DNA of 62,343 bases from a virus (Duplodnaviria; Caudoviricetes). Shown one piece after another: positions 1 to 38,900 of this stretch. Where the stretch lies: IMG/VR virus record IMGVR_UViG_3300037851_000300, positions 1-62,343 of that record. One strand, written 5' to 3'. The notes beneath the pieces were generated by a model. The model worked only from the letters and a program-made list of their open reading frames with translations, searched no databases and was not told the DNA's origin. Each line of letters starts with the position of its first letter. Position 1 is the stretch's first letter. A program made the translations under genes and the position numbers.

Positions 1-6
1 TTTGCT

Positions 7-555
7 ATGGTTAGAAGGAACATCAATGACTACCTTAAGAGAGTTGTTGAGCAGTTTATCGCTCTAGACAAGCAGTTCATAGATACAGAAATGGTTATTC
101 GCATAGTTGGCGAGCCAGCTGACTTCTCAGAGATAGACACCCTTATGAACCTCCCAGTTGAGATAAGAGAGACCCTCGGTAACATGAGATTCATAACAGT
201 TGAGAGCATCAAGGATATAGCTTCAGAGTTCGATGTAGAGGTCGACATCGATAATTCAGTACCAATCAACAAAGCAATGCTTTTGCAGAGCTACGAGAAG
301 TTACTCGCACAATCCATTGCTGACCCAAATTCTGGACTCAATAGAGCAGAGATATACAAGGAATGGGTTAATGCCATGGGACATAAAGGTTCCAGATTCT
401 TCCTTAATACTCAAAACCAGATGTATATGCCAATGCCTGGGCAGATGCCGATGCAACAGGGCCCACAAGGTTCCAAAGCTTCAGCACCAATGCCAGGAGC
501 AGTAACAAACACCATGGGAATGTCTACGAGACAGAATCCAACAATAAATCAATAA
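7..555 (+). CDS. Portal protein, C-terminal part (truncated at window edge)
   Basis: EFDVEVDIDNSVP motif and Q/M/P-rich tail typical of P22/SU10-like portals; lies upstream of scaffold and MCP. Confidence 0.7.
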   Translation: MVRRNINDYLKRVVEQFIALDKQFIDTEMVIRIVGEPADFSEIDTLMNLPVEIRETLGNMRFITVESIKDIASEFDVEVDIDNSVPINKAMLLQSYEKLLAQSIADPNSGLNRAEIYKEWVNAMGHKGSRFFLNTQNQMYMPMPGQMPMQQGPQGSKASAPMPGAVTNTMGMSTRQNPTINQ

Positions 556-557
556 AC

Positions 558-680
558 ATGAAATCAAACCCGAAAAAAGAAAGTACCCGTTCAGTGAAAG
601 TAGGGCATAAGCACCCGATACAGCCTAAAGCGAATCATAACGGACCCAAATCACCACTTCAGCTTAAAAAGCGAAAATAG
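558..680 (+). CDS. Small basic protein (40 aa, MKSNPKKES...LKKRK)
   Basis: Own translation; fills the gap between portal and the next gene. Confidence 0.5.
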   Translation: MKSNPKKESTRSVKVGHKHPIQPKANHNGPKSPLQLKKRK

Positions 681-986
681 ATGGATGCCAACACAAAGAC
701 AACTTACCAGGAGATGATAGACAGAGGACAGAGAGCTCAAGCATGGTTATCCTTAGAAACCACCCAAGAGTTCCTCAAACCCCTTAAAGATAAGATAGCT
801 GAGCTAAAGGCGTTAGACTACAACGATATTCTGGGACTAGACGATAAGACGTTTCGTTCCAAAGTGGAAGCATCGTTCTTGGCGGCCAAGGAAATAGAAG
901 ATTTTTTTGCATATCTAGACGACACATTGTTGGCCGCTGAACAAGCCAGAATTGCACTAGATGGCAAGGACGTGGACGATTACTAA
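681..986 (+). CDS. Hypothetical head-associated protein
   Basis: Helical ~100-aa ORF between portal and scaffold. Confidence 0.6.
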   Translation: MDANTKTTYQEMIDRGQRAQAWLSLETTQEFLKPLKDKIAELKALDYNDILGLDDKTFRSKVEASFLAAKEIEDFFAYLDDTLLAAEQARIALDGKDVDDY

Positions 987-1072
987 TCGTCCCCCCACCC
1001 CAGCACTTGCAGAGTGTTGAGGCGGGGTCGGTCGAACCCCCCTGTTCCTTAAAACTTAACTTCATCGAGTTA

Positions 1073-1837
1073 ATGACAGAATCACAGCAATCCCCCGCTA
1101 CCGTCTCAGCTCCACAAGAGTCTGAAGGCAACGGGAATGCGAACATTCAAAGCGAAGTACGCCAAGAATCATCCGCAGTCCCCGCAAGTAGCGAGGTACC
1201 CAAAGAACTAGAGGTAATCAACAAAGCCGCCAAAAGGCAATATAAGACCCTGGAAGAAGCCGAAAAAGGCATCTCCGAGACTTATAGTTATGTTGGAACC
1301 CTAGGCCAGCGAGCTGCCATAGTTGACAAGCTAGCTGAGCGGATAGCTTCTGAAAATGAAGTGTCCAAAGAGGATGCAACCAAGTATCTTGAGTTGCTGC
1401 TTGAGCAAACACCTGTTGCTCAACCCGAACAATCCTCATCGAGAGCGGATGTGCCAACCGAAACAAAGGTCAGAGTACAGGAGACCTTAAAGGACTACCA
1501 ACTCCAGACTTTGTCTCAGCAAGTACAGGAAGAAAAACTGTTGAGGAAATTCCCAGAAGCTGAAAGCAATATGGATTTAATTAAAAACATTCATAAGGCT
1601 ACTGGTAGGGAATTCTTCGAAATCTACGAGAAGGACATACTTCCCCTCGTGGAGGTAGGCAAAAAGCAAGCGTACGAATCTCAAAGCACTAAGCAGGGCG
1701 CAAGTGTAGTCACTTCGGGGGCAACACCCCCACCAGCCGACCCATACAATGAAACCTTTAAAAAGTTTCAGCGTGGTCAAGCCTCTGTAATAGAGCTTTT
1801 GAAGGCTAAAGGACTTAGGATAGGACCGAAAGAATAG
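1073..1837 (+). CDS. Capsid scaffolding protein
   Basis: Acidic disordered N-terminus, YKTLEEAEKG motif, coiled-coil, directly before MCP; start reassigned to ATG 1073. Confidence 0.75.
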   Translation: MTESQQSPATVSAPQESEGNGNANIQSEVRQESSAVPASSEVPKELEVINKAAKRQYKTLEEAEKGISETYSYVGTLGQRAAIVDKLAERIASENEVSKEDATKYLELLLEQTPVAQPEQSSSRADVPTETKVRVQETLKDYQLQTLSQQVQEEKLLRKFPEAESNMDLIKNIHKATGREFFEIYEKDILPLVEVGKKQAYESQSTKQGASVVTSGATPPPADPYNETFKKFQRGQASVIELLKAKGLRIGPKE

Positions 1838-1851
1838 AACATCGCAAAGAA

Positions 1852-3779
1852 TTGGCAATCGGACTCATAACTTTAATCTCATAGAGTTCGCAGAGAGTAA
1901 TCTCTGTGTAAAAATATTCCTCTGAATTCGGCGAATATCCACATTGTTTCAATGGAGAGATGGTGATATCATACTACTATGATACATCAATCTAACGAGA
2001 CTCTAAGGACAACGCCGAGCGAAAGTAGAATTGCGTGGTTGTCTGGTATTATAGACGGAGAAGGGACTATATGTCGCTATCAGATGGGTAAAAGGTCCCA
2101 TCAACATAGAGGATATATATTAGGAGTAGTGGTCGTGAATACAGACCTAAATATCCTAAACGAAGTCCAGTCTATATATACAGACTTAGGAATTGTAAGT
2201 AAGAGGAATCAAAAAAGTGCTTCCAAAAAACAGCGAGAGGGTTCATATAAATTCACCAAACCTTGTTATGAAATAGTGATAAGGAGAAGAGAAGATATAC
2301 ATACCCTGCTAGACTTATTGATTCCATATCTTATCGGAGATAAGAAACAAAAGGCTATCGATTTAAAAGAATGGATAGAACATAATCCCCGATTAAGAGA
2401 AGGCACCACAAAATTCCGCTGCGTGTAACGACTGAGCGAGGAACTCCCGAGAGGGATGAAGCCACAGTCTGACCTCTATAGTAATATAGAGAGGCAAGCA
2501 GAAATGTCTTGTCCCCGTAATGGGTAACAAAAGTGATGATGACGCTAGTCGTCGTGAAGATTTAGTCGACGTGATTACCAACGTATCTCCCAGCGAAACA
2601 CCGTTGCTCTCTGGATTAGGAGAAGGCTCTGAGGCAACTCAGACCCTGCATGAATGGCTTACAGCCTCTTATGCAGCCTATGCGGATAATGCTCAGGCGG
2701 AATCCTCAGCATTCTCAGCCGTAGACCTTACCCAGCCGACACGTGCAGTCAACAAGACCCAGATTTTCAAGGACGACATTCAAGTGTCGGGAACTGAAGT
2801 CGCGGTCAATGTTGGCGGAGCACAAGGTGCATGGGAATACCAGCTAGAAAAGAACTTGAAGGAACATGCCAAAGACATTGAGCTCGCGCTCATGAATGGC
2901 TCAGTTGCTTCAGGTTCTTCAGGTGTTGGACGCAGAATGGTTGGTGTCATAAATGGCATTACCACTAACGCGACTGCACGTGCATCTGGTTCCTCACTTG
3001 GAGAAACCGACTTCAACAACATCATGGAGATGATTTACAACTCCACTGATACAGTTGCTGATGAGGTATACGTTGGCGCAACCCTTAAGAGAGATATTAG
3101 TGCTTTCACCGCAGGTTCAACTCGCTTCCTTTCAGCTGATGACAAGAGACTTGTCAGACCAGTTGATGTGTACGAGTCTGACTTCGGAATGCATAGGAAA
3201 TACTTTGTGCATTTAAAACTTGGCCATATGCTGGGAACCCCTAAAACTTGTATGACTATTGATTCCAGTGTATACTCAACCAGTATACATCAACAACAAT
3301 AGTAACACCATGCAAGATATTACAATGGGCAATCAGCAGGAAAGGCTTCTGTGTTGGTTAGGAGGTTTAGTAGACGGAGAAGGTCGCTTCTTCATTATAA
3401 ACGAAGTGACCTGAGATTAGCAGAAAAAGTTAGGTCGCTTAACTCACCAAAAAGAAGAATCCTCAGAGACTTTACGCCAAGATTAGCCATGATAGATGAC
3501 TAATATGATAAAGTCCAAACCCTCACAAATACATCGAAAGATGGGGTAGGAGGAATGAAGGTATTCCTCCATAGGACCGTCGGCAATGGCGCAAACGCCA
3601 AAGAGTTGGTGGCAATCAAGAACGAGATGTGGAAAATTAGCTGGCTCAAGGGCCGCCGAACGAAGGTTACTGACCTTCAGAAGGACGGAGACCGCGAGCG
3701 CGCACAGATTATTTCAGAGCTTACTCTGGAAAACCGTGGACAGGCAGCTTCCGCATGCGTTACTGGTTTCACTAGCTAG
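1852..3779 (+). CDS. Major capsid protein (SU10/DUF5309-like), 3 exons: 1852-1873, 2536-3194, 3558-3779; 300 aa after splicing
   Basis: Splicing gives MAIGLIT-Y-DDASRREDLVDVITNVSPSETP and VYESDFGMH-KVFLHR in frame; TTG start. Confidence 0.9.
1874..2535 (+). ncRNA. Group I intron 1 in MCP gene
   Basis: P1 AACUUU/AGAGUU with U1873-G1884 wobble; P3 UUCCUC/GAGGAA; P4 UUCGGCG/CGCCGAG; P7 GACUG/CAGUC; terminal G2535. Confidence 0.92.
1979..2428 (+). CDS. Intron-encoded single-motif LAGLIDADG homing endonuclease
   Basis: IAWLSGIIDGEG motif; lies inside intron 1 between the P4 and P7 elements. Confidence 0.92.
   Translation: MIHQSNETLRTTPSESRIAWLSGIIDGEGTICRYQMGKRSHQHRGYILGVVVVNTDLNILNEVQSIYTDLGIVSKRNQKSASKKQREGSYKFTKPCYEIVIRRREDIHTLLDLLIPYLIGDKKQKAIDLKEWIEHNPRLREGTTKFRCV
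3195..3557 (+). ncRNA. Group I intron 2 in MCP gene
   Basis: P1 AUGCAU/GUGCAU with U3194-G3207; 8-bp P10 AAUACUUU/AAGGUAUU; P3 UUGGC/GCCAA; AAUCAGCAGG, UCAGAGACUUUA, GAUAAAGUCC core; terminal G3557. Confidence 0.92.
3310..3414 (+). pseudogene. Remnant of LAGLIDADG endonuclease in intron 2
   Basis: MQDITMGNQQERLLCWLGGLVDGEGRFFIINEVT* (34 aa): motif intact, rest deleted. Confidence 0.85.
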
Positions 3780-3792
3780 TACATCATACGTA

Positions 3793-3828
3793 CTCTCTCT
3801 ACAGCTCATTAGTGGGCTGTAGGAGAGT
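3793..3828 (+). terminator. Hairpin after MCP (terminator or mRNA-stabilising stem)
   Basis: CTCTC-TACAGCTCA/TGGGCTGTA-GGAGAG inverted repeat; no strong U tract. Confidence 0.45.
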
Positions 3829-3839
3829 GCAGTAGCAAA

Positions 3840-4199
3840 GTGGACGAACACCTAAAAGGTAATAAGATAGTTATAGTGAAGCCCACAGAAGATGTGGGCT
3901 CTTTGGCATCAGATTCAGAAGATATTAAGTGGAAGATAGTGGACACGATGATAAGAGACTACACGAAGGTTCACCCTAAAGAGATGCTTGATTTGATAAA
4001 AGAGAATAAGGCCATAAAGGAATCCATAGAAAATGAATTCGCTAGGTCTAAGGGAGGCGGTCTTAGGTGGGGATTCAGACTTCCCCCTGGGCTGTTGAGA
4101 ATCATAGAGCGCAGGTTCCCAGATATATTTACTGATAAACAACAAATAACAAAATTTATGAAGCAGTACCCTGCACTTAGGGTCTGCGAAATCGTATGA
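3840..4199 (+). CDS. Hypothetical protein following MCP
   Basis: ORF with ATGA overlap to the next gene. Confidence 0.65.
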   Translation: MDEHLKGNKIVIVKPTEDVGSLASDSEDIKWKIVDTMIRDYTKVHPKEMLDLIKENKAIKESIENEFARSKGGGLRWGFRLPPGLLRIIERRFPDIFTDKQQITKFMKQYPALRVCEIV

Positions 4200-6553
4200 C
4201 AATATCATTGAACATGATAGTGAAAAACGAGGCCAGTAAGATAAAAGATGCGCTGGACTCCATACAGGAATACGTAGACAAGATTTACATAACAGACACT
4301 GGCTCTACGGACGCTACCAAGGAAGTTATAAAAAAACTTCCCTATTCTGGGATGATAGAGGTAAGCGATTTTAACCCCACCACCAATCCAGAGGCGTTTT
4401 TTGAAGATGGTAGTATCTATAATTTTGCAGCAGCTAGGGCGTTTAATTTCTCACAATCTAAAGAGGATTGGATAATTTGGATGGACGCCGACGATATCTA
4501 CGTTAATCCAAAGAATATAGGGTTGCTTATAAATGAAGCCAAGGTTAATAATATCTCTGGCTATTTTTTCGATTACTGGTATCAGATAAGCGAGGGTAAA
4601 CCTACGGAGCACCACCTAAAGTTGATGCTTACAAGGAATAACGGTCAGTTCGAATGGAAGGGTAATATCCACGAAGACCTGCTCCCTAAGAGCCCGATGA
4701 GATTGGCAAAGACACAGGCTGTCACCCGTGTGCACAAGCACGGGAAAGTAGACGAAGCCAGTAAGAATATAAGAAATATGAGGATATTGTCTCGCCAGCT
4801 ACAGGAGATGGGAGACAAGCCAGACCCCAGAACACTGTTCTATATGGGACGCTCATTGATGGTGGCTAGACAGAGCATAGAGGCTATTCCGATATTTGAG
4901 AAGTATATGGAGTTATCTGGATGGGCTGAGGAACTATATGAGGCTCGGTTCCTATTGGCAGAATGTTATGTAGATGCTGGGAGATTAGACGACGCCAGAA
5001 ATGCAGCCCTGAAGAACCTTGAGCTCAAGCCCAATTCCCCCGATGCATATCACCAGATGGCCAGGACATACTTAATGGAGCAAGAGTACCAAAAAGCACT
5101 ACAGTGGACTGCCAATGGTCTTAGGATAATTCCCCCAGAAGATGCGGTTACCACATTCCCACACAGATACACTACTCAGCCATATGCCACCCTAGCCACG
5201 ACATACCTTTATATGGGTAAGTTTGATGACGCTAAGATGGCTATAGATAAAGCCCTCTCCTACTCTCCTAAAGATGCTAAACTATTAGAGATACAGCAGT
5301 TAATATCATACCTGAGCGAAAGAAGAAGCGTAGCAGTAGCTTATGCGACTATCGCTGGATATATGAGGAAAAAGAAAGAAGAGTATAGAATCGCCACCCT
5401 GATAGGAAATGTCCCTGGAGACCTCAATGCTGACCCCATTATAGGTAAAATAAGATATGACTATTCTAAGCCCAAGACTTGGCCAGAGAAGAGTATCGCC
5501 ATACTAGCCTTCGGTACCGTAGAAGCATGGTCGCCCAAGAACGAGAAGGCTGGAGGCATAGGAGGTTCCGAAGAGGCTGTGCTTAACTTAAGCCGAGAAC
5601 TAAACAAACTAGGATATAGGGTTACCGTTTATACCAACACTGGTAGTGATGATGGAGTGTACGATGGAGTGGTGTGGAAGATGTTTACAGAGTTTAATGG
5701 CAAAGACAAATTCGACACTATAGTCCTATGGAGGGCTAACGGATTACTTGAATATGAGATAGATGCCAACGTAAAGCTGTTTGACCTACATGACGTCCCG
5801 ATGTTTGGGGACTGGAATGAAGAGAAAAGCAACAAGGTTAATAAGCTGATGGTCAAATCAGAATATCACAAGAGTCTGTTCCCAGAGGTTAAACCAGAGA
5901 AGATAGTAATTTCCACCAATGGAATAAACTCTACCCAATTTAAGAAGAAGATAGACAGGGAAGAATTCAGGTGTTTTTATTCGTCTGCTATAGATAGAGG
6001 ACTAGATATCCTACTGGATATGTGGCCCAAGATTAAAGAGAAGGTTCCCAAGGCTACACTACATATCTACTATGGATTCCAGACCTTTAAGGCATTAAAT
6101 AAGCACAACCCAGAGAGGATGAGGTATGTGAATAACATCGAGAAGAAGATGAACGATATGGCCAGTCTGGGGGTCGTCTATCACGGAAGGGTGTCTCACG
6201 ATGAATTAGCTGATGAGATGCTCAAATCAGATGTTTGGCTATATCCAACCTATTTCCCAGAGATATCTTGTATAACTGCGATGAAGGCTCAGGCAGCTGG
6301 AGCGATACCCGTGTGCACAGACTATGCCGCCCTTGATGAGACGGTTCAGTATGGAAAGAAAATAGGTGGGGATATTTACATAGAAGAGATTCAGGCGGAG
6401 TTCATCAACGCTGCAGTCGAGGTGTTGAACAATTCCAAGTTCAAGAAGGAACAGAGGAAACTAATGATGCCATGGGCTCAGGATAAGTTCTCTTGGACAA
6501 ACGTAGCAAAAGAATGGGATAAAACTATCAATGACGAGCATAATAGAGGATAG
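4196..6553 (+). CDS. Multidomain glycosyltransferase: GT2 (GT-A) + TPR + GT4-like (GT-B)
   Basis: ISLNMIVKNE, DTGSTD, NFAAAR, WMDADD, IHE; central TPR helices; GGSE, YSSAIDRGL, EISCITAMKAQAAG. Confidence 0.9.
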   Translation: MTISLNMIVKNEASKIKDALDSIQEYVDKIYITDTGSTDATKEVIKKLPYSGMIEVSDFNPTTNPEAFFEDGSIYNFAAARAFNFSQSKEDWIIWMDADDIYVNPKNIGLLINEAKVNNISGYFFDYWYQISEGKPTEHHLKLMLTRNNGQFEWKGNIHEDLLPKSPMRLAKTQAVTRVHKHGKVDEASKNIRNMRILSRQLQEMGDKPDPRTLFYMGRSLMVARQSIEAIPIFEKYMELSGWAEELYEARFLLAECYVDAGRLDDARNAALKNLELKPNSPDAYHQMARTYLMEQEYQKALQWTANGLRIIPPEDAVTTFPHRYTTQPYATLATTYLYMGKFDDAKMAIDKALSYSPKDAKLLEIQQLISYLSERRSVAVAYATIAGYMRKKKEEYRIATLIGNVPGDLNADPIIGKIRYDYSKPKTWPEKSIAILAFGTVEAWSPKNEKAGGIGGSEEAVLNLSRELNKLGYRVTVYTNTGSDDGVYDGVVWKMFTEFNGKDKFDTIVLWRANGLLEYEIDANVKLFDLHDVPMFGDWNEEKSNKVNKLMVKSEYHKSLFPEVKPEKIVISTNGINSTQFKKKIDREEFRCFYSSAIDRGLDILLDMWPKIKEKVPKATLHIYYGFQTFKALNKHNPERMRYVNNIEKKMNDMASLGVVYHGRVSHDELADEMLKSDVWLYPTYFPEISCITAMKAQAAGAIPVCTDYAALDETVQYGKKIGGDIYIEEIQAEFINAAVEVLNNSKFKKEQRKLMMPWAQDKFSWTNVAKEWDKTINDEHNRG

Positions 6554-6737
6554 AGGCAGAGAGAAGACTGGCGAGGTGAGCAAGATGTGCCCACATTGTG
6601 GCTTCTACCAGAAACACGAGATATACGAGCATAAGAAGAAGTTTAAGGCTTATGTTTATGTAGAGGTGGTGTATGTATGTATGGCTTGTGGCGCATCTGT
6701 CGTAACGGCTCCCAAGGCATACAAAATTGAATCATGA
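6531..6737 (+). CDS. Small zinc-ribbon protein
   Basis: CPHC...CMAC. Confidence 0.6.
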   Translation: MTSIIEDRGREKTGEVSKMCPHCGFYQKHEIYEHKKKFKAYVYVEVVYVCMACGASVVTAPKAYKIES

Positions 6738-7627
6738 AAATTGCATTCGTATGGGAGGATATCTACAGATATCCAGATGGTTGGAAAGATGGACTATGGT
6801 TGGCCCTTAAACACATTGAAAAGGATGCTGAGGTAAAATATTTTAGCCCAACTCAGATTGTAGAGATAGGAGAATACAGCCCAGATATTATGATTGTTTG
6901 GGGAGCCATGGCTGGATACTACATGCCACAGTTAAAAGAACTCCCGTTTAAGAAGGCATTATGCTTTGGTGGTGGCCCTATAGACGCACAGGGATGCGCT
7001 GGATGGGACTTAGTATTTACTGAGAGTAAATCAGATGAAGATATATTGTCCTGGCTACGAGTTCCATACTTAAGAGCCTTTGGTATAAATGAAGAGATAT
7101 TCAAGCCCCAGAGATTAAAGAAGGAATATTCTGGGATGATAGCTGGAACCTTTGCTCTTTGGAAAAGACATGATTTATTCGCTCAAGCCACTGGCGGGGG
7201 TGGAATAGCCATAGGGATAGTACAGAAGCACGAGATAGAGTGCTATAATGTTTGCAAGACATATGGCAACACTGTCTTAGAAGAGCAACCTAGAGAGAAG
7301 ATAGCCGAAATTATTAACAAGTCACATACGGTTGTGAATACAGCCAATTTGTGGGGCGGAGGGCAGAGACTTACCTTAGAGGCTATGGCTTGTAATGTCC
7401 CTCCGATAGTTATGAAGGATAGCCCCAAGAACTGTGAGTTCTCCCACGAATCTGGGATAGGAGTCATTGTAGAACCTAGTGTAGAACAAATAAGGTGGGC
7501 TATAGGCTCACTTAGGGGAAAACATTGTAATGGAAGAGAGTACATTGAATCAAAATGGACCAGTAGACACTATGCCGACGCCCTCAAGAAAGGAATCGAG
7601 CTTGTTCTTGGCCCCACACAACGATGA
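6734..7627 (+). CDS. GT4-like (GT-B) glycosyltransferase
   Basis: WKRHDLF and GGQRLTLEAMACNVP motifs. Confidence 0.85.
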   Translation: MKIAFVWEDIYRYPDGWKDGLWLALKHIEKDAEVKYFSPTQIVEIGEYSPDIMIVWGAMAGYYMPQLKELPFKKALCFGGGPIDAQGCAGWDLVFTESKSDEDILSWLRVPYLRAFGINEEIFKPQRLKKEYSGMIAGTFALWKRHDLFAQATGGGGIAIGIVQKHEIECYNVCKTYGNTVLEEQPREKIAEIINKSHTVVNTANLWGGGQRLTLEAMACNVPPIVMKDSPKNCEFSHESGIGVIVEPSVEQIRWAIGSLRGKHCNGREYIESKWTSRHYADALKKGIELVLGPTQR

Positions 7628-8063
7628 CGGGTGCCTATTTAGAGGTATTATCATACAGTGATTTAACCCTCTTATTGTTATTGTTACTGATAGTTGGGTT
7701 CAGTATATCCGTGGGGATGGCATTACAGCGGAAGATAGAGGAGAAGAATCAAGAAGAGCGATGTGGTTGCTCGGAGCGGAGTGTAGATTCCCTGGGCTCA
7801 GGGACGACACGCTTAAGGGAGAGAGTCTCTACCGTGCCCTCATTGCCTACAAAGACCAGTACGGTACGATTTATTTACCCGAGTGATAATGGTGGTATGG
7901 GCCCCACGACCTCGTCAATGAATTGGGGCCAAGCATCTGGTCAAGGGCGATACGATGCACAACCCATACAAGAACTGACCTCCGTGCTGAAGAAGAAGCC
8001 CTCGCGTGTTACAAAAGCTAAATCAAAATCAATCTCCCGCACTTCGAGGCGGACAAAAATTAA
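7572..8063 (+). pseudogene. Decayed PIG-L/LmbE-family deacetylase
   Basis: One frame reads LFLAPHNDD..VIVTDS..R.EESRRAM.LLG..HDLV..ALACYKS with stops at 7659, 7884, 7887, 8019. Confidence 0.8.
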
Positions 8064-8076
8064 AAAACCACGATGA
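7624..8076 (+). CDS. Orphan ORF with N-terminal TM helix and basic tail, in the +1 frame of the PIG-L relic
   Basis: 150 open codons with ATGA overlaps on both neighbours. Confidence 0.5.
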   Translation: MTGAYLEVLSYSDLTLLLLLLLIVGFSISVGMALQRKIEEKNQEERCGCSERSVDSLGSGTTRLRERVSTVPSLPTKTSTVRFIYPSDNGGMGPTTSSMNWGQASGQGRYDAQPIQELTSVLKKKPSRVTKAKSKSISRTSRRTKIKKPR

Positions 8077-8516
8077 AGTTAAATCTTGGGTGTGGAGAAA
8101 ATAAGAAGGCTGGTTGGATAAATATAGATTATGTTCCAGAAGTCAACCCAGACCTTATCCTTGACCTAAATAACACCAAACACAATAGACTGCCATATAA
8201 AGATAACGAGATAGAGGAATTAAATGCCGTGGACGTACTTGAGCATATAGAGAATATAATCCCACTAATGAACGAACTACATAGGGTCTTGGTGGTTGGA
8301 GGCGTGATTCACATAGAAGTCCCGCTTGCTGGTACAGTTGATTTCTATAAAGACCCCACTCATGTACGCTCATTTGTGCCAGAGACTTTTAAATATTTTG
8401 CAGAATGGTGTCCTAGGTTTTATGGCATAAAACAATGGAAGATATTAGAGATGAGGTGGACCAAGGGAGGAGATAACCAAAACCGTATCTGGGTGACAAT
8501 GACACCACTAAAATGA
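8073..8516 (+). CDS. Class I SAM-dependent methyltransferase
   Basis: KLNLGCG, VLEHI, LHRVL..GG, DPTH. Confidence 0.88.
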   Translation: MKLNLGCGENKKAGWINIDYVPEVNPDLILDLNNTKHNRLPYKDNEIEELNAVDVLEHIENIIPLMNELHRVLVVGGVIHIEVPLAGTVDFYKDPTHVRSFVPETFKYFAEWCPRFYGIKQWKILEMRWTKGGDNQNRIWVTMTPLK

Positions 8517-33506: not shown

Positions 33507-36500
33507 TCAGTCCATATTGTCTTTTAATAACTTATACGCCTTATATTCCTGATCCGATAGTTTATTAAGAATAGCTTTCGCTTCCTGATATCTTCCTTCT
33601 TCAAGAAGTTTCTGTATCTCAATATATTTAGGATAGACGATTTTTTTCGCCTCCTGCGTTTTCGCTCTCTTAGCTGATGAGGACAGTGTCTTATATATCT
33701 CGTAGTCAGATTCACTTAATCCTTCGAGCAAGCGCCGGGCTTCAAGTTCGTTGCCCTGATTCCTTAACTCCTGTATCTGTTTGAATACTGGCTCAACTTT
33801 TCTCCTTGCCTCCGCCCGCTTCTTAACTTGTTCGGCAAGAGCGTCAAAGTATTTCTGTGTATCTATCTGGGATTTGGTCTTAAATTTAATCGGAAACTCT
33901 AACGCTTCCAGAGCAGATTGCACCGGGTTCTTTTTATACTGGAAGTCCTTATCCCATAGGGGCTTGAGTACGCGATTATATAGTTCAGTCATATACGGAT
34001 GATTGGATTGCAATCCTACATACTCCGCAATTTTGCCGATTTTGGTCTTGCCCTCGTCTGTTTCCTTATATATTTGTCTGCCAAAGTAATCCTTATTGGC
34101 TATCACCTCGGACACTATCTTCACCGGCATTGAGAATAGCGATCCGAATTTCTGTTCCGCAGTTGAGATATCACCCTTGCCAAGAGCTATGAACCCGGAA
34201 CCGAGATTGCGTGGTAGGGATAATATAGACGGCAAGAGAGCGACATAGGCCGCATCTCCATTTGGCAAGGGAGCTTTAAGCTCAAACTCCTTTCCCGGCT
34301 CATTGTCCCACATATAGTTCCCGGTCAATTTTCTATTCAAGTAATTATATAGGGCATAGGATAGGACGGCTCCGGCGGCAAAACGTCTGTTCAGCTTAAA
34401 CGCCGGATTACGGAATTCAGTTGTCAGAGACTTAGCCGTATTGAATAGCATATTGATTATGCCTTCCCTGAATTTTGGAGCAAAGAACATTGTTGTAAGA
34501 ACATCTTGAGATAGTTTAGACCTTGCAAGGTTATCAGATAGACCATAGAAGGCCTTGACCGTATCCCCAGCCAGTTGCTTTGCTTGTCCTTCCGGCAAAC
34601 CTTTCTTTAGAGCTGATTTGTATGTCCGCTCAAAAGCATCAACATATAGTTGAGGCATAAATGAGGCAAATGTCTTTTCGTTGAAAAGCTTGTCAAAAGA
34701 TTCCCCGGCAAGTTCTGTCATCTTCTTATTCGCCACCAGATTCTTATATACCTTATCCAAGCTTCCTACCCTATGGCTTACATCAATACCCTCCTCCGCC
34801 ATCATCTTTAGATACGGAGCTTTTTCGGTGAAGTATTTTATAGTTGATGAATTGAAGTTGGCCCGGACAAATGGAATAACAGCTCTCGGATTAAACGAGG
34901 ACAGCTCTTTAAGAAACTGCCCGAACACAAAGAAGTTGATTGAAGATTTTGGAACACCAGCCGATAATCTCAATTCTTGGACAAAACGGTTAGTCCAAGC
35001 TCCGGTGGAGAATACCTTATCCAAAAACCCTAAGTCCTCCTCTTTTCTAAATATACCGTTTAGGGCATTGGCTACCTCTGGAGTGGCTGAATACTTTTCA
35101 TTGGCAAAGGGAAGATTAAGCGGCTTGAATGAATCCGGCGCCAACTCTGTCGGGAACACCTTACCTGCCTCAACAAGATTTGTCATAAATTTCTTGTTAG
35201 CAATCGTCTTTTCCATCTCACCACGATAGTATGCGATGAGCTGTGCCGGATTGGTGTATTTAGGATTAAGTCCGAATTTGATGGCCGTTTCATAATCCGG
35301 GAATGTCCTCTCCTTACTGAATGAAGGATTTATTTTAAGCCGTGCCGCCACATCACCCGGCAAAGTCCCATTACCGCTTATATACGCGTCAATAGCATCG
35401 TCTGATACATTGTTCTCGCGCATATATTTTACTATGGCCGCCTTTATTTCTTCGGCGCTCTCTTTATATACCTGCGGCAAATAATTCTGCCAGTAATTCA
35501 CGGTAAGACCTCTCTTATTCGCTTCACGGAACATAGAATCAAAAGCATCTTTGATTGCCTGATTGTATGGCGTATTCTCCCCGGCCTGATACTTCTTTAT
35601 AATCTCCCACCCTTCCTTCTCTGGTATCTTATACTTTGCGATTTCTGCATTGGCAAATTCTTTGGCGGACAGAATCTCTTTAGTCCAGTCAGAATATATC
35701 TTGCGGGATTTATCGTCCATATACTTCGCTGGAGCTAAGAATTCTTTTAGCTTCTGAAACATACCGGTATTCTTTGCCGGACGGCCCATAGCCACTTCGT
35801 CAAGTTTTGCGGTAATGGTTTTGAGATACTGCTGATATTCTTCGGCCCTCTGCGCATTTCTTACGCCGGCATCAAAGATGGCCTCCTCCGGCTTATATAT
35901 CTCTTGTTTTGGTAATTCAGGAATGGCCCCGGTCTTGCTATTGAACATCTGAATCTCCTTATTTATCCGTTCTATTGTCTTTTCAGAATACTCTTTGATC
36001 TTACTGCCTATTTTATATTCCGGGGTTGATTTCAAAAGCTGAAGCTCCGCTTTTAATGCCTTAAATTCCCTTCTCTTGATTGCAAACTGTTCGTATATCT
36101 CTCCAAGCTCATTGGCATCTTCTGGATATTGAGGATAGATAGAATGGAACTCTTGGGCTATCTGATCGCCCTCTCTCATCCATATCGTTCGCCCCTTACC
36201 AAGTCCGCCTTCCCCGAGTTTTCCTTCACGCTTATTAGCATATTTATCCAAGCGTTTTAATGGATTGTCGGCCAGATACTCTTCAAGTGCCTCCACTTCT
36301 CTTTGCAAGTTTGGGATGTCTTTAACGTTCCGTATTGCTCCAAGAGCAAGCACACCAGCTCCGGCCTTTAGGGGATTGAATTGTATTTTACCGTCATCAT
36401 CTACTTCTACGCCGGCAACGGCTCCAAATGCTTCCTTTTTTCCTACTTTTCTAAGAGCTTCTAATCTTGATGCCTCACTACCCTTTTTGTATTTAACGAT

Positions 36501-38900
36501 AGATATTCCATGATTTTTAAGGTTGTCTATGGTTTCTAATGATGTTCCTTCTGGGACTACCGCATACTTGAATCTGCTTATTCCTATCGGTTTTCTGAAT
36601 TTAGTTTCAAAATACTCCGTAGGCATCTCAATTATCTCCTTTTTTAATTTTAGAAGGTCGTTAATAACATCTTCTGTTATACCTTTGGGTAGATATTGTC
36701 TTTCGCCGGTAACAAGAAACTCACTCACCCCTGCCGCCACTTGGTCGTTATGTATAAATCTGTTTGAATTTTCAGAAGCCGGATTGAATTCCAAGACCTT
36801 ATCTATCACACCTTCATACCTTTTCCACATATCATCCTTAACTTTCTCGAATTCATCGCTCGGTAAAACATAATTTTTGAGAGAACTTTTAATCTTTTTC
36901 TCTCCGCTAATTGTCGGAACCAGTTTAGCCCTCAACGACGGTAAGCCATAATCAAAACCCTCTCCCGCCCTTACGCCTCTACTGTTCATTATCTTTGAAG
37001 CATTTTCAAGAGTATTCGGCTTATATACCGGTCGGCCCATGTAGGTATTGTGGGAGTATATCTTCTCCTCTACGTTAAATTTACCCAATATGTCTTGGAT
37101 ATAGTTATCAAACTTAGCTTGAAGCTTATTTTTCTGTATGATATCCCGGAACTTGCTAAGCGTTCTATATTCGGCTATCGTTCCATCCGCCTCTTTGACA
37201 ATAGGGTATTTTATTCCATTCTTATCAAAGAAATCAGCCATAGCCAAAGACGAATTATCTAAGCTGCTCTGGACTACCCTGTCAAGGTCAAGATTCGTGG
37301 CCCTTGCACCAACAATCGGTTCGTACTTTTTATAGTATTCTATCAACCTATCCTTATCCTCTCGCTTCATTATCTGCACCGTTGAGGGATATCTCGGAGT
37401 ATATACATCGGATCTGAATGTTCTTCCCTCGGATAAAATATCTTTCGGAGCAACGAGTGTTATATCTCCATATCCTGTAACGTGTGCCTTGTTCAAATCG
37501 GCGACAGCCATTGACGGATTCGCCAGCCCGCCTTTCTTTATAGCGAAATTTAGCTTACTTTCCGTAAGGTTATGCGTTACGATAGCGGACTTATCTAATG
37601 GTTTCAGCTTTGGATTAACAATCTGCTTCTTCAAGACCGTTAGATAATTCCTTACACCTTCGGGATTATTTATCTTTGATATATCTCCCGATGCCTTACC
37701 TAACAGCTCACCCGATACACCGGCTTTTTTAAGCAGTTTAGAAATTACTCCGGGGTCGGTTTCTTTTACCAACAGATTCACAAGATTCTTACCACCCCCG
37801 GCTTCAAAATTGAAATACTGCTCCAAAGCAGTTGCACCGACAGCCAAAGGTAAAGCTGACTTGCCTACATACGGCCTAAATAGTTGTTCTCTTTCTGCGA
37901 CACTTGTCACCGTACTCTTGATAGGTTCTTCACCGAATATGGACTTACCAATTTTAGATTGTCCGAATTCTGTCTTGGTAATATCCTGCCGACCCTGTTC
38001 ATCAATAAAAGCTTTAAGGGCTTTTACCGGGGATAATGTCCTTCCGAAAGTTTCAGCTCCCGACCCTATACCAGTGGCAAGCTCTGATATGGCCGTCCCG
38101 GGGCCTGCACCGGCCTGTATTGTCCAACGAGCTACATCCTTCACTAAAGGGCTAAAAGTCCTCGCCTCGGCCAATCTTGAAGCATCCGGAAGACCATAGG
38201 GCTTGGCTTCCTTATACACCTGCCTTGTTTTGGCTATATCCACCCCAGTTACATATCGGACAATGTTATTTATCTTATCACCCAATATAGGCAAGCGGTT
38301 CACGCCTTTATCACTTAGGATAGATGATGCGGATGCTTGAGATGTCTTGGCGGGTTCAAATGAAACAGATAAATTTTTTGTAGGAGCTACATACTTTTCT
38401 CTATCGGCGTTAAATCCTTCTATCTGTGCGATAGTTTCGGCAATCTTTGATAACCTATCCTCCGGTGTATTGAGAGAAAAAGGAGTTATAAATTCAGATA
38501 TCTTCGCTTTTGGAGATATGCCGGATATATCCTGTATCATTCGGACATATTGTGCCGTATTGTTGTTGTCCGATGCTGGAGCATAGACATTTACGAAATC
38601 TTTTATGTTCCACTCCGGATTATTCTTTACTTTGCTTAGAATATCGTTTCGTAATGCCTTCATACCAGAATCAGTGCTATCAAATTTAGCCCAATACAAA
38701 GGACTGCCGTTGTTATATCCCTTTAGCTCCCCCCTTGTGGCACCTTCTTGGCCCATAAAAATTAGGTTGCCGGGATTATTATGACGCTGTGAGATATTGC
38801 CGGTAGGTTTTACGGATGCCAAAGACGGCTTTTTTGCTATGTCCTGTTGAGCAGGCGTTGGCTTGCTGAAGATGTTTTGTAGAGTTGTTAAGATTGACAT
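33507..38900 (-). CDS. Giant polyvalent ejection protein with N-terminal muramidase-like domain
   Basis: RHNNPGNL..F...G..AL...YAPASDNNNT..Y; 1797 aa; last gene of the virion operon. Confidence 0.75.
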   Translation of the reverse strand: MSILTTLQNIFSKPTPAQQDIAKKPSLASVKPTGNISQRHNNPGNLIFMGQEGATRGELKGYNNGSPLYWAKFDSTDSGMKALRNDILSKVKNNPEWNIKDFVNVYAPASDNNNTAQYVRMIQDISGISPKAKISEFITPFSLNTPEDRLSKIAETIAQIEGFNADREKYVAPTKNLSVSFEPAKTSQASASSILSDKGVNRLPILGDKINNIVRYVTGVDIAKTRQVYKEAKPYGLPDASRLAEARTFSPLVKDVARWTIQAGAGPGTAISELATGIGSGAETFGRTLSPVKALKAFIDEQGRQDITKTEFGQSKIGKSIFGEEPIKSTVTSVAEREQLFRPYVGKSALPLAVGATALEQYFNFEAGGGKNLVNLLVKETDPGVISKLLKKAGVSGELLGKASGDISKINNPEGVRNYLTVLKKQIVNPKLKPLDKSAIVTHNLTESKLNFAIKKGGLANPSMAVADLNKAHVTGYGDITLVAPKDILSEGRTFRSDVYTPRYPSTVQIMKREDKDRLIEYYKKYEPIVGARATNLDLDRVVQSSLDNSSLAMADFFDKNGIKYPIVKEADGTIAEYRTLSKFRDIIQKNKLQAKFDNYIQDILGKFNVEEKIYSHNTYMGRPVYKPNTLENASKIMNSRGVRAGEGFDYGLPSLRAKLVPTISGEKKIKSSLKNYVLPSDEFEKVKDDMWKRYEGVIDKVLEFNPASENSNRFIHNDQVAAGVSEFLVTGERQYLPKGITEDVINDLLKLKKEIIEMPTEYFETKFRKPIGISRFKYAVVPEGTSLETIDNLKNHGISIVKYKKGSEASRLEALRKVGKKEAFGAVAGVEVDDDGKIQFNPLKAGAGVLALGAIRNVKDIPNLQREVEALEEYLADNPLKRLDKYANKREGKLGEGGLGKGRTIWMREGDQIAQEFHSIYPQYPEDANELGEIYEQFAIKRREFKALKAELQLLKSTPEYKIGSKIKEYSEKTIERINKEIQMFNSKTGAIPELPKQEIYKPEEAIFDAGVRNAQRAEEYQQYLKTITAKLDEVAMGRPAKNTGMFQKLKEFLAPAKYMDDKSRKIYSDWTKEILSAKEFANAEIAKYKIPEKEGWEIIKKYQAGENTPYNQAIKDAFDSMFREANKRGLTVNYWQNYLPQVYKESAEEIKAAIVKYMRENNVSDDAIDAYISGNGTLPGDVAARLKINPSFSKERTFPDYETAIKFGLNPKYTNPAQLIAYYRGEMEKTIANKKFMTNLVEAGKVFPTELAPDSFKPLNLPFANEKYSATPEVANALNGIFRKEEDLGFLDKVFSTGAWTNRFVQELRLSAGVPKSSINFFVFGQFLKELSSFNPRAVIPFVRANFNSSTIKYFTEKAPYLKMMAEEGIDVSHRVGSLDKVYKNLVANKKMTELAGESFDKLFNEKTFASFMPQLYVDAFERTYKSALKKGLPEGQAKQLAGDTVKAFYGLSDNLARSKLSQDVLTTMFFAPKFREGIINMLFNTAKSLTTEFRNPAFKLNRRFAAGAVLSYALYNYLNRKLTGNYMWDNEPGKEFELKAPLPNGDAAYVALLPSILSLPRNLGSGFIALGKGDISTAEQKFGSLFSMPVKIVSEVIANKDYFGRQIYKETDEGKTKIGKIAEYVGLQSNHPYMTELYNRVLKPLWDKDFQYKKNPVQSALEALEFPIKFKTKSQIDTQKYFDALAEQVKKRAEARRKVEPVFKQIQELRNQGNELEARRLLEGLSESDYEIYKTLSSSAKRAKTQEAKKIVYPKYIEIQKLLEEGRYQEAKAILNKLSDQEYKAYKLLKDNMD

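Follow-up and report, generated by a model that had tools for sequence, protein, structure and literature searches.

The classic group I introns of phages sit in the T4 genes td, nrdB and nrdD and in SPO1's gene for DNA polymerase, and in the account that describes them phage introns mostly carry GIY-YIG, HNH, PD-(D/E)xK or EDxHD enzymes rather than LAGLIDADG enzymes; an in-frame stop a short way past the 5' splice site is among their known features (PMC3984707). Introns in other late phage genes, terminase genes included, have been described as well, and so have introns in capsid genes: an intron bearing a LAGLIDADG-like open reading frame (ORF) lies in the capsid gene of mycobacteriophage LittleE (Cluster J; Pope et al., 2013), and the intron's splicing was demonstrated by reverse transcription PCR and N-terminal sequencing (PMC3706429), and the same report cites a capsid-gene intron in the lactococcal phage Tuc2009. 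In the Jug jumbo phages of the gut, essential genes (among them terL, nrdD and the DNA polymerase gene) split by many group I introns were found with covariance models, and metatranscriptome reads confirmed the splicing of 37 of the 76 predicted introns (PMC12880540). Here we analyze a virus record from IMG/VR that has 62,343 bases and a CheckV completeness of 77%, referred to below as the window, in which positions 1852-3779 of the + strand very probably make up one SU10-type major capsid gene in three exons, with two group I introns between them.

Four ORFs (sizes in amino acids, aa) lie on the + strand between a scaffold-like gene (1007-1837) and a glycosyltransferase gene (4196-6553):

1979-2428, + strand: ORF of 149 aa
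2520-3302, + strand: ORF of 260 aa
3259-3414, + strand: ORF of 51 aa
3555-3779, + strand: ORF of 74 aa

The 260-aa ORF matches the Pfam family SU10_MCP (PF17236, formerly DUF5309; cut-off 24.1 bits) with 182.1 bits, its residues 11-224 corresponding to profile positions 11-225, and the 74-aa ORF matches it with 45.3 bits, residues 2-72 corresponding to profile positions 227-291. The match ends at 225 and resumes at 227; therefore this is one capsid protein, broken exactly there. Its gene is divided as follows:

1852-1873, + strand: first exon of the major capsid gene; seven codons from the TTG start onward, then base 1 of codon 8 (MAIGLIT plus the T of TAT)
2536-3194, + strand: exon 2; last two bases of codon 8 to His226 (SU10_MCP positions 11-225, E 2.2e-53)
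3558-3779, + strand: exon 3; Lys227 to Ser300 plus the TAG stop (SU10_MCP positions 227-291, E 1.1e-11)

TTG 1852 is the first start codon of its frame, which opens after the in-frame TAG at 1816-1818, and exon 1 (TTG GCA ATC GGA CTC ATA ACT T), joined with AT at 2536-2537, reads (M)AIGLITY and continues with DDASRREDL. A scripted join of 1852-1873, 2536-3194 and 3558-3779 yields 903 nucleotides (nt) that encode a 300-aa protein and a stop, with the predicted peptides AIGLITYDDASR and SDFGMHK, which confirms the proposal of an initial annotation of this DNA that removing both introns restores a 300-aa capsid frame.

The capsid protein has 372 relatives in IMG/VR, of which the best 80 were fetched; with 80 metagenome loci these make up the 160 closest loci that we examined. 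The spliced protein gives a single contiguous tblastn match in all 80 IMG/VR loci and in all 80 metagenome loci; junction 2 is spanned in 79 of the 80 in each set (the exceptions are L003 and L216, where the contig ends), and residues 7-12 in 66 of the 80 metagenome loci. Among these 160 loci the insertion sites (codon 8; codons 226/227) are empty in every one that covers them. The closest intron-less homologues, L001 and L002, align over residues 1-300 with 66.7% and 65.3% identity, are uninterrupted for 287-291 aa and begin with MAIGLITY (L003 begins with MAAGLITY). Neither junction shows an insertion or deletion relative to the closest homologues: at junction 2 the window has DFGMH joined to KVFLHR, and L001 and L002 have DFGLHKIFLHR. 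Exon 2 shows 68% identity to L001, and exon 1 is identical to it at 18 of 22 nt (counted from the aligned sequences). In the 20 closest IMG/VR homologues, the N-termini of which were inspected, the frame upstream of the match is open for just a few codons and a Met start, and residue 8, a Tyr or Phe that is made only by joining T to AT, is kept in 19. The proposed first exon of 22 nt is thus backed both by the homologue N-termini and by the nucleotide comparison with the closest homologues. The scan of metagenome contigs gave no relative closer than 64% identity, so that among them there is no sister phage, with or without introns, for comparison.

A homologue profile of length 293, built from 60 distinct intron-less homologues, scores the protein with both introns removed at 378.3 bits (profile positions 4-291 of 293 covered), as against 305.6 bits for the unspliced long ORF (2520-3299) and 53.3 bits for the short one (3555-3776); the spliced protein therefore aligns better, not worse, than the unspliced ORFs do. 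Shifting junction 1 by one base reduces the score to 372.7 bits, and skipping exon 1 and starting at ATG 2520 reduces it to 369.9 bits; exon 1 thus adds 8.4 bits. The two junctions put forward originally, ACTT joined to ATGAT and GCAT joined to AAGGTA, are backed by these scores, and the second also by an intron-less DNA allele (see below). An alternative junction 1, in which 1872 is joined to 2535 in frame, was rejected: it ends the intron in U, changes Tyr8 to Asp and scores 5.6 bits lower.

At both sites the inserts have the anatomy of group I introns (paired regions P1 to P10, joining segments J). U ends both upstream exons and forms a wobble pair, U1873.G1884 in a P1 of 7 base pairs (bp) and U3194.G3207 in a P1 of 11 bp; both introns end in G (G2535, G3557); and P10 pairs AUGA with UCAU (4 bp) in intron 1 and AAGGUA with UACUUU (6 bp) in intron 2. 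The P4-P5-P6 stack, the P3-P8 domain and the P3/P7 pseudoknot are found in both, and all helices pair. J4/5 is AAUA in intron 1 and GAA in intron 2, J5/4 is CAA in both, and P7 takes the form N-[bulge]-GACU/AGUC-N in both. The P1 U-G splice sites, P10 guides, P3/P4/P7 cores and terminal G of the initial annotation are therefore all present in both introns when checked base by base, and its two group I introns are supported by splice-site features, core helices and homologues alike. Inteins would look different: the reading frame of exon 1 runs into a stop at 1882, 9 nt after intron 1 begins, that of exon 2 into one at 3300, inside intron 2, and the length of intron 1 (662 nt) is no multiple of three.

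When the 62-kilobase (kb) window was scanned on both strands with 4227 Rfam families, there was no match at the Rfam gathering threshold; ranked by E-value, the only two matches up to E 0.1 were both Intron_gpI (RF00028) on the + strand, at 3170-3546 (32.5 bits, E 1.7e-4) and at 2258-2491 (31.8 bits, E 2.8e-4). The covariance-model scan that had been suggested as a check thus singles out the two inserts as the only matches in the window, but leaves both below the Rfam gathering score. Insertions of ORFs depress RF00028 scores, and the E-values for the whole window are still significant. The two introns are unrelated to each other and represent two different ribozyme lineages. Intron 2, the more compact, is laid out as follows:

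3195-3557, + strand: intron 2, group I, 363 nt (RF00028 32.5 bits over 3170-3546, full model length)
3187-97/3204-14, + strand: P1 of intron 2; P10 3558-63/3201-06; P3 3219-24/3476-81
3229-34/3333-38, + strand: P4 of intron 2; P5 3238-40/3327-29; P5a-c 3247-3316
3344-50/3453-62, + strand: P6 of intron 2; P7 3466,3468-71/3512-16, with A3467 bulged
3484-3502, + strand: P8 of intron 2; P9 3532-43 (GAAA-capped); terminal G 3557
3310-3414, + strand: what is left of a LAGLIDADG gene in intron 2: 34 codons with the motif CWLGGLVDGEG, ended by a stop (within the ORF 3259-3414)

P1 runs via AAAA directly into P3, so that intron 2 is without P2; an A-rich GAA/CAA internal loop parts P4 from P5, the P5 extension is long, and P6 holds the endonuclease remnant. 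P7 pairs G-[A bulge]-GACU with AGUC-C, and all pairs check. The remnant has no Pfam match, the endonuclease frames of related introns run to 189-194 aa, and intron 2 has probably lost the ability to move by itself. At its 3' end the intron carries AGGAGGAATG (3548-3557), a strong Shine-Dalgarno-like string with an ATG in frame with exon 3 one base past GGAGG, and in the minimum-free-energy fold this 3' end pairs with the start of exon 3 (3551-3566).

The exact J6/7-P7 plus J8/7-P7 pattern of intron 2 occurs at 11 IMG/VR loci. The intron 2 core recurs without an ORF in L085:10741-10976 (236 nt), where RF00028 scores 70.9 bits, above 50. P3 covaries: in the nine loci with the conserved J3/4-P4 motif it is formed by eight different complementary pairs, each directly 5' of the motif (read by eye, with the six bases following the P7 5' strand taken as the P3 3' strand), namely CUUGGC/GCCAAG, CCGAGC/GCUUGG, CAGGUC/GAUCUG, UUUCGC/GCGAAA, CUGAAC/GUUCGG, GGUGGC/GCCACC, UCGAGC/GCUUGA and UCAAGC/GCUUGA. 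The P8 hairpins of the relatives likewise all differ in sequence and keep their pairing (by eye). An RF00028 E-value scan of the ORF-bearing relatives recovered just one pattern-matched intron, L087:5714-5873 (28.6 bits, below threshold), and gave no 5' boundaries for these relatives; the other match of that scan, at 45.1 bits, is to a second intron in L086. The five relatives closest to intron 2 as ribozymes (L083, L085, L088, L090 and L092) are flanked by putative tRNA halves (D-arm-like and T-arm-like, read by eye); their contigs, of 48-230 kb, are rich in tRNA genes, and all but L085 carry an intron ORF.

Site 2 was also found empty in DNA. Logan contigs of two DNA runs (X1, labeled freshwater metagenome, and X2) were placed on 1700-3900 at 85% likeness. 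One X1 contig (64 nt, depth 3.1, 30 nt on each side) joins 3193 to 3561 with four letters between, and an X2 contig (151 nt at depth 2, the shorter side measuring 70 nt, with one differing letter among 147 aligned) makes the same join. The four letters take the place of T3194, A3558, A3559 and G3560; two of them are changed, each at the third position of its codon, and the encoded His-Lys is kept. There is therefore DNA of a close relative that has no intron 2, the cut lying exactly at the predicted site, and presence/absence polymorphism, a feature of mobile introns, is seen at site 2; we regard these contigs as supporting rather than decisive, because they are short, shallow and placed at 85% likeness. 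A further X1 contig of 427 nt spans 3164-3590 across intron 2 with zero differences, so that the junction is no artefact of the window's assembly. Other X1 and X2 contigs match only pieces of the intron cores (1882-1935, 2423-2479, 3204-3245 and 3447-3523), a pattern that fits related introns which would be living elsewhere in those communities.

Intron 1 is longer and carries an intact endonuclease gene:

1874-2535, + strand: intron 1, group I, 662 nt (RF00028 31.8 bits over 2258-2491)
1869-75/1882-88, + strand: P1 of intron 1; P10 2536-39/1879-82; P2 1889-96/1901-08 (GUAA loop)
1917-22/2438-43, + strand: P3 of intron 1, UUCCUC paired with GAGGAA; J3/4 is UGAA
1927-33/2013-19, + strand: P4 of intron 1, UUCGGCG/CGCCGAG
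1938-40/2007-09, + strand: P5 of intron 1, UCC/GGA; extension 1941-2006
2428,2430-33/2466-70, + strand: P7 of intron 1, with C2429 bulged; P8 2445-56
2474-80/2485-91, + strand: P9 of intron 1; P9.1 and P9.2 at about 2493-2524; terminal G 2535
1979-2428, + strand: intron-1 ORF, LAGLIDADG homing endonuclease of 149 aa (Pfam LAGLIDADG_3, PF14528, E 3.5e-8, 34 bits, cut-off 22.5)

From its start inside the P5 extension the ORF passes across the 3' strands of both P5 and P4, takes up P6 and reaches its UAA stop in J6/7. Relatives place the P7 5' strand, the P3 3' strand and P8 of intron 1 on the 3' side of the ORF, at 2428-2470, and the helix 1927-33/2013-19 is P4. A model with P7 at 1998-2002 and P3 at 1928-33/2013-18 was ruled out, since the relatives put the AACGACU-P3'-P8-P7' block 3' of the ORF.

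The search for the class of intron 1 began with a comparison with L086 and went on with a degenerate P8...P7 pattern, which is found at 120 or more IMG/VR loci; the exact 19-nt J8/7-P7 string of intron 1 has 0 matches in IMG/VR. The block typical of the class (2427-2524 in the window) consists of AACGACU, a variable P3 3' strand, CCCGARAGGG, J8/7, AGUCUGAMC, P9, P9.1 and P9.2. A stretch of 6 bp complementary to the P3 3' strand of the same locus, with UGA directly after it, is present upstream in 44 of 65 distinct relatives versus 4 of 65 in a reversed-strand control, and there are 15 strand pairs, that of the window being unique. In an alignment of 25 ORF-less members of the class (A2), 97.0% of cells are paired versus 84.7% in shuffles and 34-48% with slid partners, and 0 of 500 shuffles reach the observed value. 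Both sides change in 17 of 29 pairs, including 10 of the 14 pairs of P4, P5 and P6, helices that played no part in the choice of sequences (P7 and P8 are fixed by the search pattern and so are uninformative). The window's intron 1 matches the class consensus helix by helix. Its 3' end (..AAAAGUG) resembles those of its relatives (..AACAGGGGUG^), and in three SU10-type relatives the upstream exon ends in U and the intron in ..GGGGUG. At the gathering threshold RF00028 found 0 of the pattern-matched introns in 15 loci with intron-1 relatives, its sole match being a different element in L099; Rfam therefore covers this class poorly, which explains the low score in the window.

The intron-1 endonuclease has a single intact motif, WLSGIIDGEG, and the window's only two LAGLIDADG motifs are distributed one to each insert. 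Over residues 10-134 the enzyme shares about 31% identity with ORFs of L091 (6507-6878) and L082 (6669-6995) that lie in introns belonging to the ribozyme class of intron 2 and not to that of intron 1; such a likeness across both classes suggests that endonuclease genes move between intron lineages. A sequence search of the PDB gave weak matches to I-CreI, I-AniI and an I-DmoI/I-CreI chimera (E 0.1-0.85). Enzymes of the I-CreI type are of similar size, have one LAGLIDADG motif and act as dimers.

Several points weigh against reading this region as one capsid gene with two group I introns. Neither RF00028 score (32.5, 31.8) reaches the gathering score of 50 bits; in intron 1, P10 is just 4 bp long and the ORF occupying P6 prevented a confident drawing of that helix; and the P3 pairing in A2 holds partly by construction, having been a selection criterion, with the test on 65 relatives as the independent control for P3. 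The TTG start is preceded only by AAAGAA, with no clear Shine-Dalgarno sequence, and a ribosome running from exon 2 into unspliced intron 2 meets no stop before 3300, so that ribosomes could cross P1-P5 and disturb folding where translation outpaces splicing. The intron-less contigs are short and of low depth, likeness was set at 85%, and run X1 is probably the source sample. At site 1 no near-identical intron-less allele was found, in X1 contigs that have no cover over 1700-3105 and are thus uninformative there.

Three other readings have to be considered against this background. Exon 1 could be unused, the capsid starting at ATG 2520 and the upstream 660 nt being an intergenic mobile cassette, made up of a LAGLIDADG gene and intron-like flanks, between the scaffold-like and capsid genes. 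ATG 2520 does open the long ORF, the Pfam match begins only at residue 11, the homologue profile still gives 369.9 bits without exon 1, and the TTG has no clear ribosome-binding site; but neither has ATG 2520, and the MGNKSD that follows it is without counterpart in the homologues, the matches of which start at residue 7-8, the proposed 3' junction. The 22 nt directly 5' of a canonical P1 encode MAIGLIT, as in the N-termini of L001 and L002, Tyr/Phe 8 needs the junction of T with AT (19 of 20 homologues), and exon 1 contributes its 8.4 bits, so we consider this reading very unlikely. That the introns are dead, or the record a defective or chimeric assembly, leaving a capsid pseudogene from which nothing is spliced, would agree with two Rfam scores below threshold, with the decayed endonuclease gene of intron 2 and with a record that CheckV rates 77% complete. 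This too is very unlikely: the three exons are free of frameshifts and stops and reach 378 bits with the profile of homologues that have no introns, neither intron has a damaged core helix, members of the class typically score below threshold (in the 15 loci with intron-1 relatives, RF00028 at its gathering threshold missed every pattern-matched intron), and the 427-nt X1 contig matching 3164-3590 without a difference shows that at least this junction is no product of the window's assembly.

We find it extremely improbable, finally, that the protein is made as separate polypeptides, with the insert 3195-3557 ending in GGAGGAATG and ATG 3555 starting a 74-aa fragment that assembles with the 260-aa fragment, an arrangement known from phage genes that free-standing endonucleases have split. 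AGGAGG (3548-3553) does lie just 5' of ATG 3555, which is in frame with exon 3; yet only one base separates GGAGG from the ATG, a spacing too short for a normal ribosome-binding site, and the N-terminal ORF would hold 35 intron-encoded residues without counterpart in the homologues. Furthermore, the insert has a complete ribozyme core with correct P1 and P10, and all 158 homologue loci that cover site 2 encode a single chain.

If the region is indeed one capsid gene with two group I introns, then splicing, endonuclease activity and homing, which we infer from the sequence, might proceed as follows. The late transcript would fold both ribozymes, and guanosine-initiated, two-step self-splicing would remove both introns. 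In each, the internal guide would pair first with the 3' end of the upstream exon (P1, U.G marking the cut) and afterwards with the 5' end of the downstream exon (P10); exogenous guanosine would attack after U1873 and U3194, and the freed exon ends would attack after G2535 and G3557, the terminal G marking the 3' cut. Only spliced mRNA would encode the 300-aa capsid protein, with TTG 1852 as its start; a ribosome that began there on unspliced RNA would halt at UAG 1882-1884, 9 nt into intron 1. Given the 22 nt from start codon to 5' splice site, we speculate that initiation and P1 formation probably compete. The LAGLIDADG enzyme of intron 1, presumably a dimer, would cut intron-less capsid alleles of co-infecting relatives near codon 8, and repair of the cut allele would copy intron 1 in (homing), while intron 2, having lost most of its endonuclease gene, would persist as a passenger.

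The genes that house relatives of these introns were assigned as well. Relatives of intron 2 have five distinct protein-coding hosts, all of them major-head genes and of at least four families: L086 is SU10_MCP, L082 (identical to L084) and L089 are phrog_267, L087 is phrog_14242 and L091 is phrog_1357. For the class of intron 1 (IMG/VR loci L093 to about L211), 119 pattern matches gave 112 ORFs just downstream, 84 of them distinct, and the PHROGs major-head assignments among the 84 are phrog_1357 (24), phrog_9953 (14), phrog_283 (14), phrog_1328 (6) and phrog_267 (5). Five disjoint clusters (26, 13, 11, 6 and 5 members) hold 61 of the 84 ORFs, and one representative of each matches a major-head family; this share is indicative and no census, because the sample consists of the matches listed for one degenerate pattern. 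The remaining neighbors are mostly tape-measure genes, major-tail genes and endonucleases. It is possible, though less likely than not, that both introns belong to deep, largely uncatalogued phage lineages that prefer virion structural genes, above all major capsid genes of several unrelated families.

Among SU10-type capsid genes there are at least four different insertion sites. In six of these genes (L086, L116, L120, L129, L194 and L196) an intron that belongs to the intron-1 class occupies the same site, where it separates the residues matching residues 27 and 28 of the window's protein (after SP[ST], before [DE]TP). The SU10-type capsid gene at L086:5700-8650 (- strand) contains two introns at the least and probably three: exon 1, encoding MAVPAGTFTTVTAIGNREDLEDVMYQISP, is followed by an HNH-type ORF, RF00028 scores 45.1 bits at 7643-8107, there is a second, small core near 7400-7620, and profile positions 211 and 217 enclose an intron related to intron 2 of the window; every insertion site differs from those of the window. 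L099:5723-6002 holds a second group I match (53.3 bits), about 300 nt downstream of the first intron and beside a major-head ORF of the phrog_9953 cluster, and may be another capsid gene with two introns.

Unless introns are modeled, a capsid gene of this kind would be mis-called, and this is probably so in many environmental phages: here the long ORF opens 668 nt downstream of the true start, and the C-terminal 74 residues resemble a small gene of their own. That gene callers would miss exon 1, as the initial annotation expected, is plausible. Because both introns, like most intron-1 relatives, stay below the threshold of the one group I model in Rfam, such introns are under-counted. On the predicted anatomy the most abundant virion protein would depend on two RNA-catalyzed reactions, and with an exon 1 of 22 nt the start codon and the 5' splice site fall within about one ribosome footprint, a convenient natural case for the competition of translation initiation with ribozyme folding. 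If the bias in host genes is true and not an effect of sampling, the capsid gene would be a preferred arena of endonuclease-driven conflict between co-infecting phages, and the LAGLIDADG enzyme of intron 1 would be a weapon against the capsid gene of intron-less competitors; in phage PhiPA3 a different intron endonuclease is described as acting as such a weapon against a competitor (PMC11620839). Should the clustering of these lineages in capsid and tail genes be confirmed on an unbiased sample, the textbook preference for nucleotide-metabolism genes would change.

Elsewhere in the window, the capsid gene and a small ORF are followed by the glycosyltransferase gene at 4196-6553 (+ strand), which encodes a 785-aa protein combining a family-2 glycosyltransferase, TPR repeats and a group-1 glycosyltransferase, an unusual fusion to find next to a capsid gene. 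In a 1796-aa protein encoded on the - strand (33507-38900), residues 436-553 form a PBECR5 (Barnase/EndoU/colicin-like) nuclease domain. For seven other ORFs of the window, 500-1522 aa in length, there is no Pfam match.

In 50,697 phage records, megablast of positions 1-8000 found nothing, and a distant blastn search with each intron found no similarity. Intron 2 resembles compact introns in bacterial and phage tRNA genes (here L085, L083, L088, L090 and L092), which we take to be subgroup IC3: between it and the putative tRNA-gene introns the J6/7-P7-J7/3 and J8/7-P7 strings are exact, the J3/4-P4 motif is common, and nothing lies between P3 and P8; it differs in being without P2, in its long P5 extension and in its protein-coding host. 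With the classic phage introns both inserts share the build of self-splicing group I ribozymes in protein genes, mobile by means of intron-encoded endonucleases, and the presence of several in one gene (Twort orf142 reportedly has three); the classic introns differ in sitting in nucleotide-metabolism, replication or unknown genes. The Jug-phage introns compared here are those described in terL, nrdD and polymerase genes rather than in a capsid gene, and they belong to other phages of another habitat (PMC12880540).

The nearest described parallel is LittleE, in which, as in the window, an intron lies in the major capsid gene, U ends the exon and G the intron, the ORF is of LAGLIDADG type and there are intron-less relatives; LittleE differs, by the same account, in having one intron with its ORF on the opposite strand, in a high-GC temperate siphovirus with another capsid family (PMC3706429). 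The window has two predicted introns of two ribozyme lineages, ORFs on the sense strand and a predicted exon 1 of 22 nt. The initial annotation had set the locus against classic phage introns that sit mostly in nucleotide-metabolism and replication genes; that description of the classic introns stands, but the capsid location is not unusual, since capsid introns such as that of LittleE have been published and the IMG/VR relatives are mostly in major-head genes. This kind of selfish element is thus already known from phage capsid genes, and the window is a well-supported example of it; what is particular here is that two unrelated introns share one SU10-type capsid gene, at sites that are empty in the 160 closest homologue loci, behind a first exon of only 22 nt.

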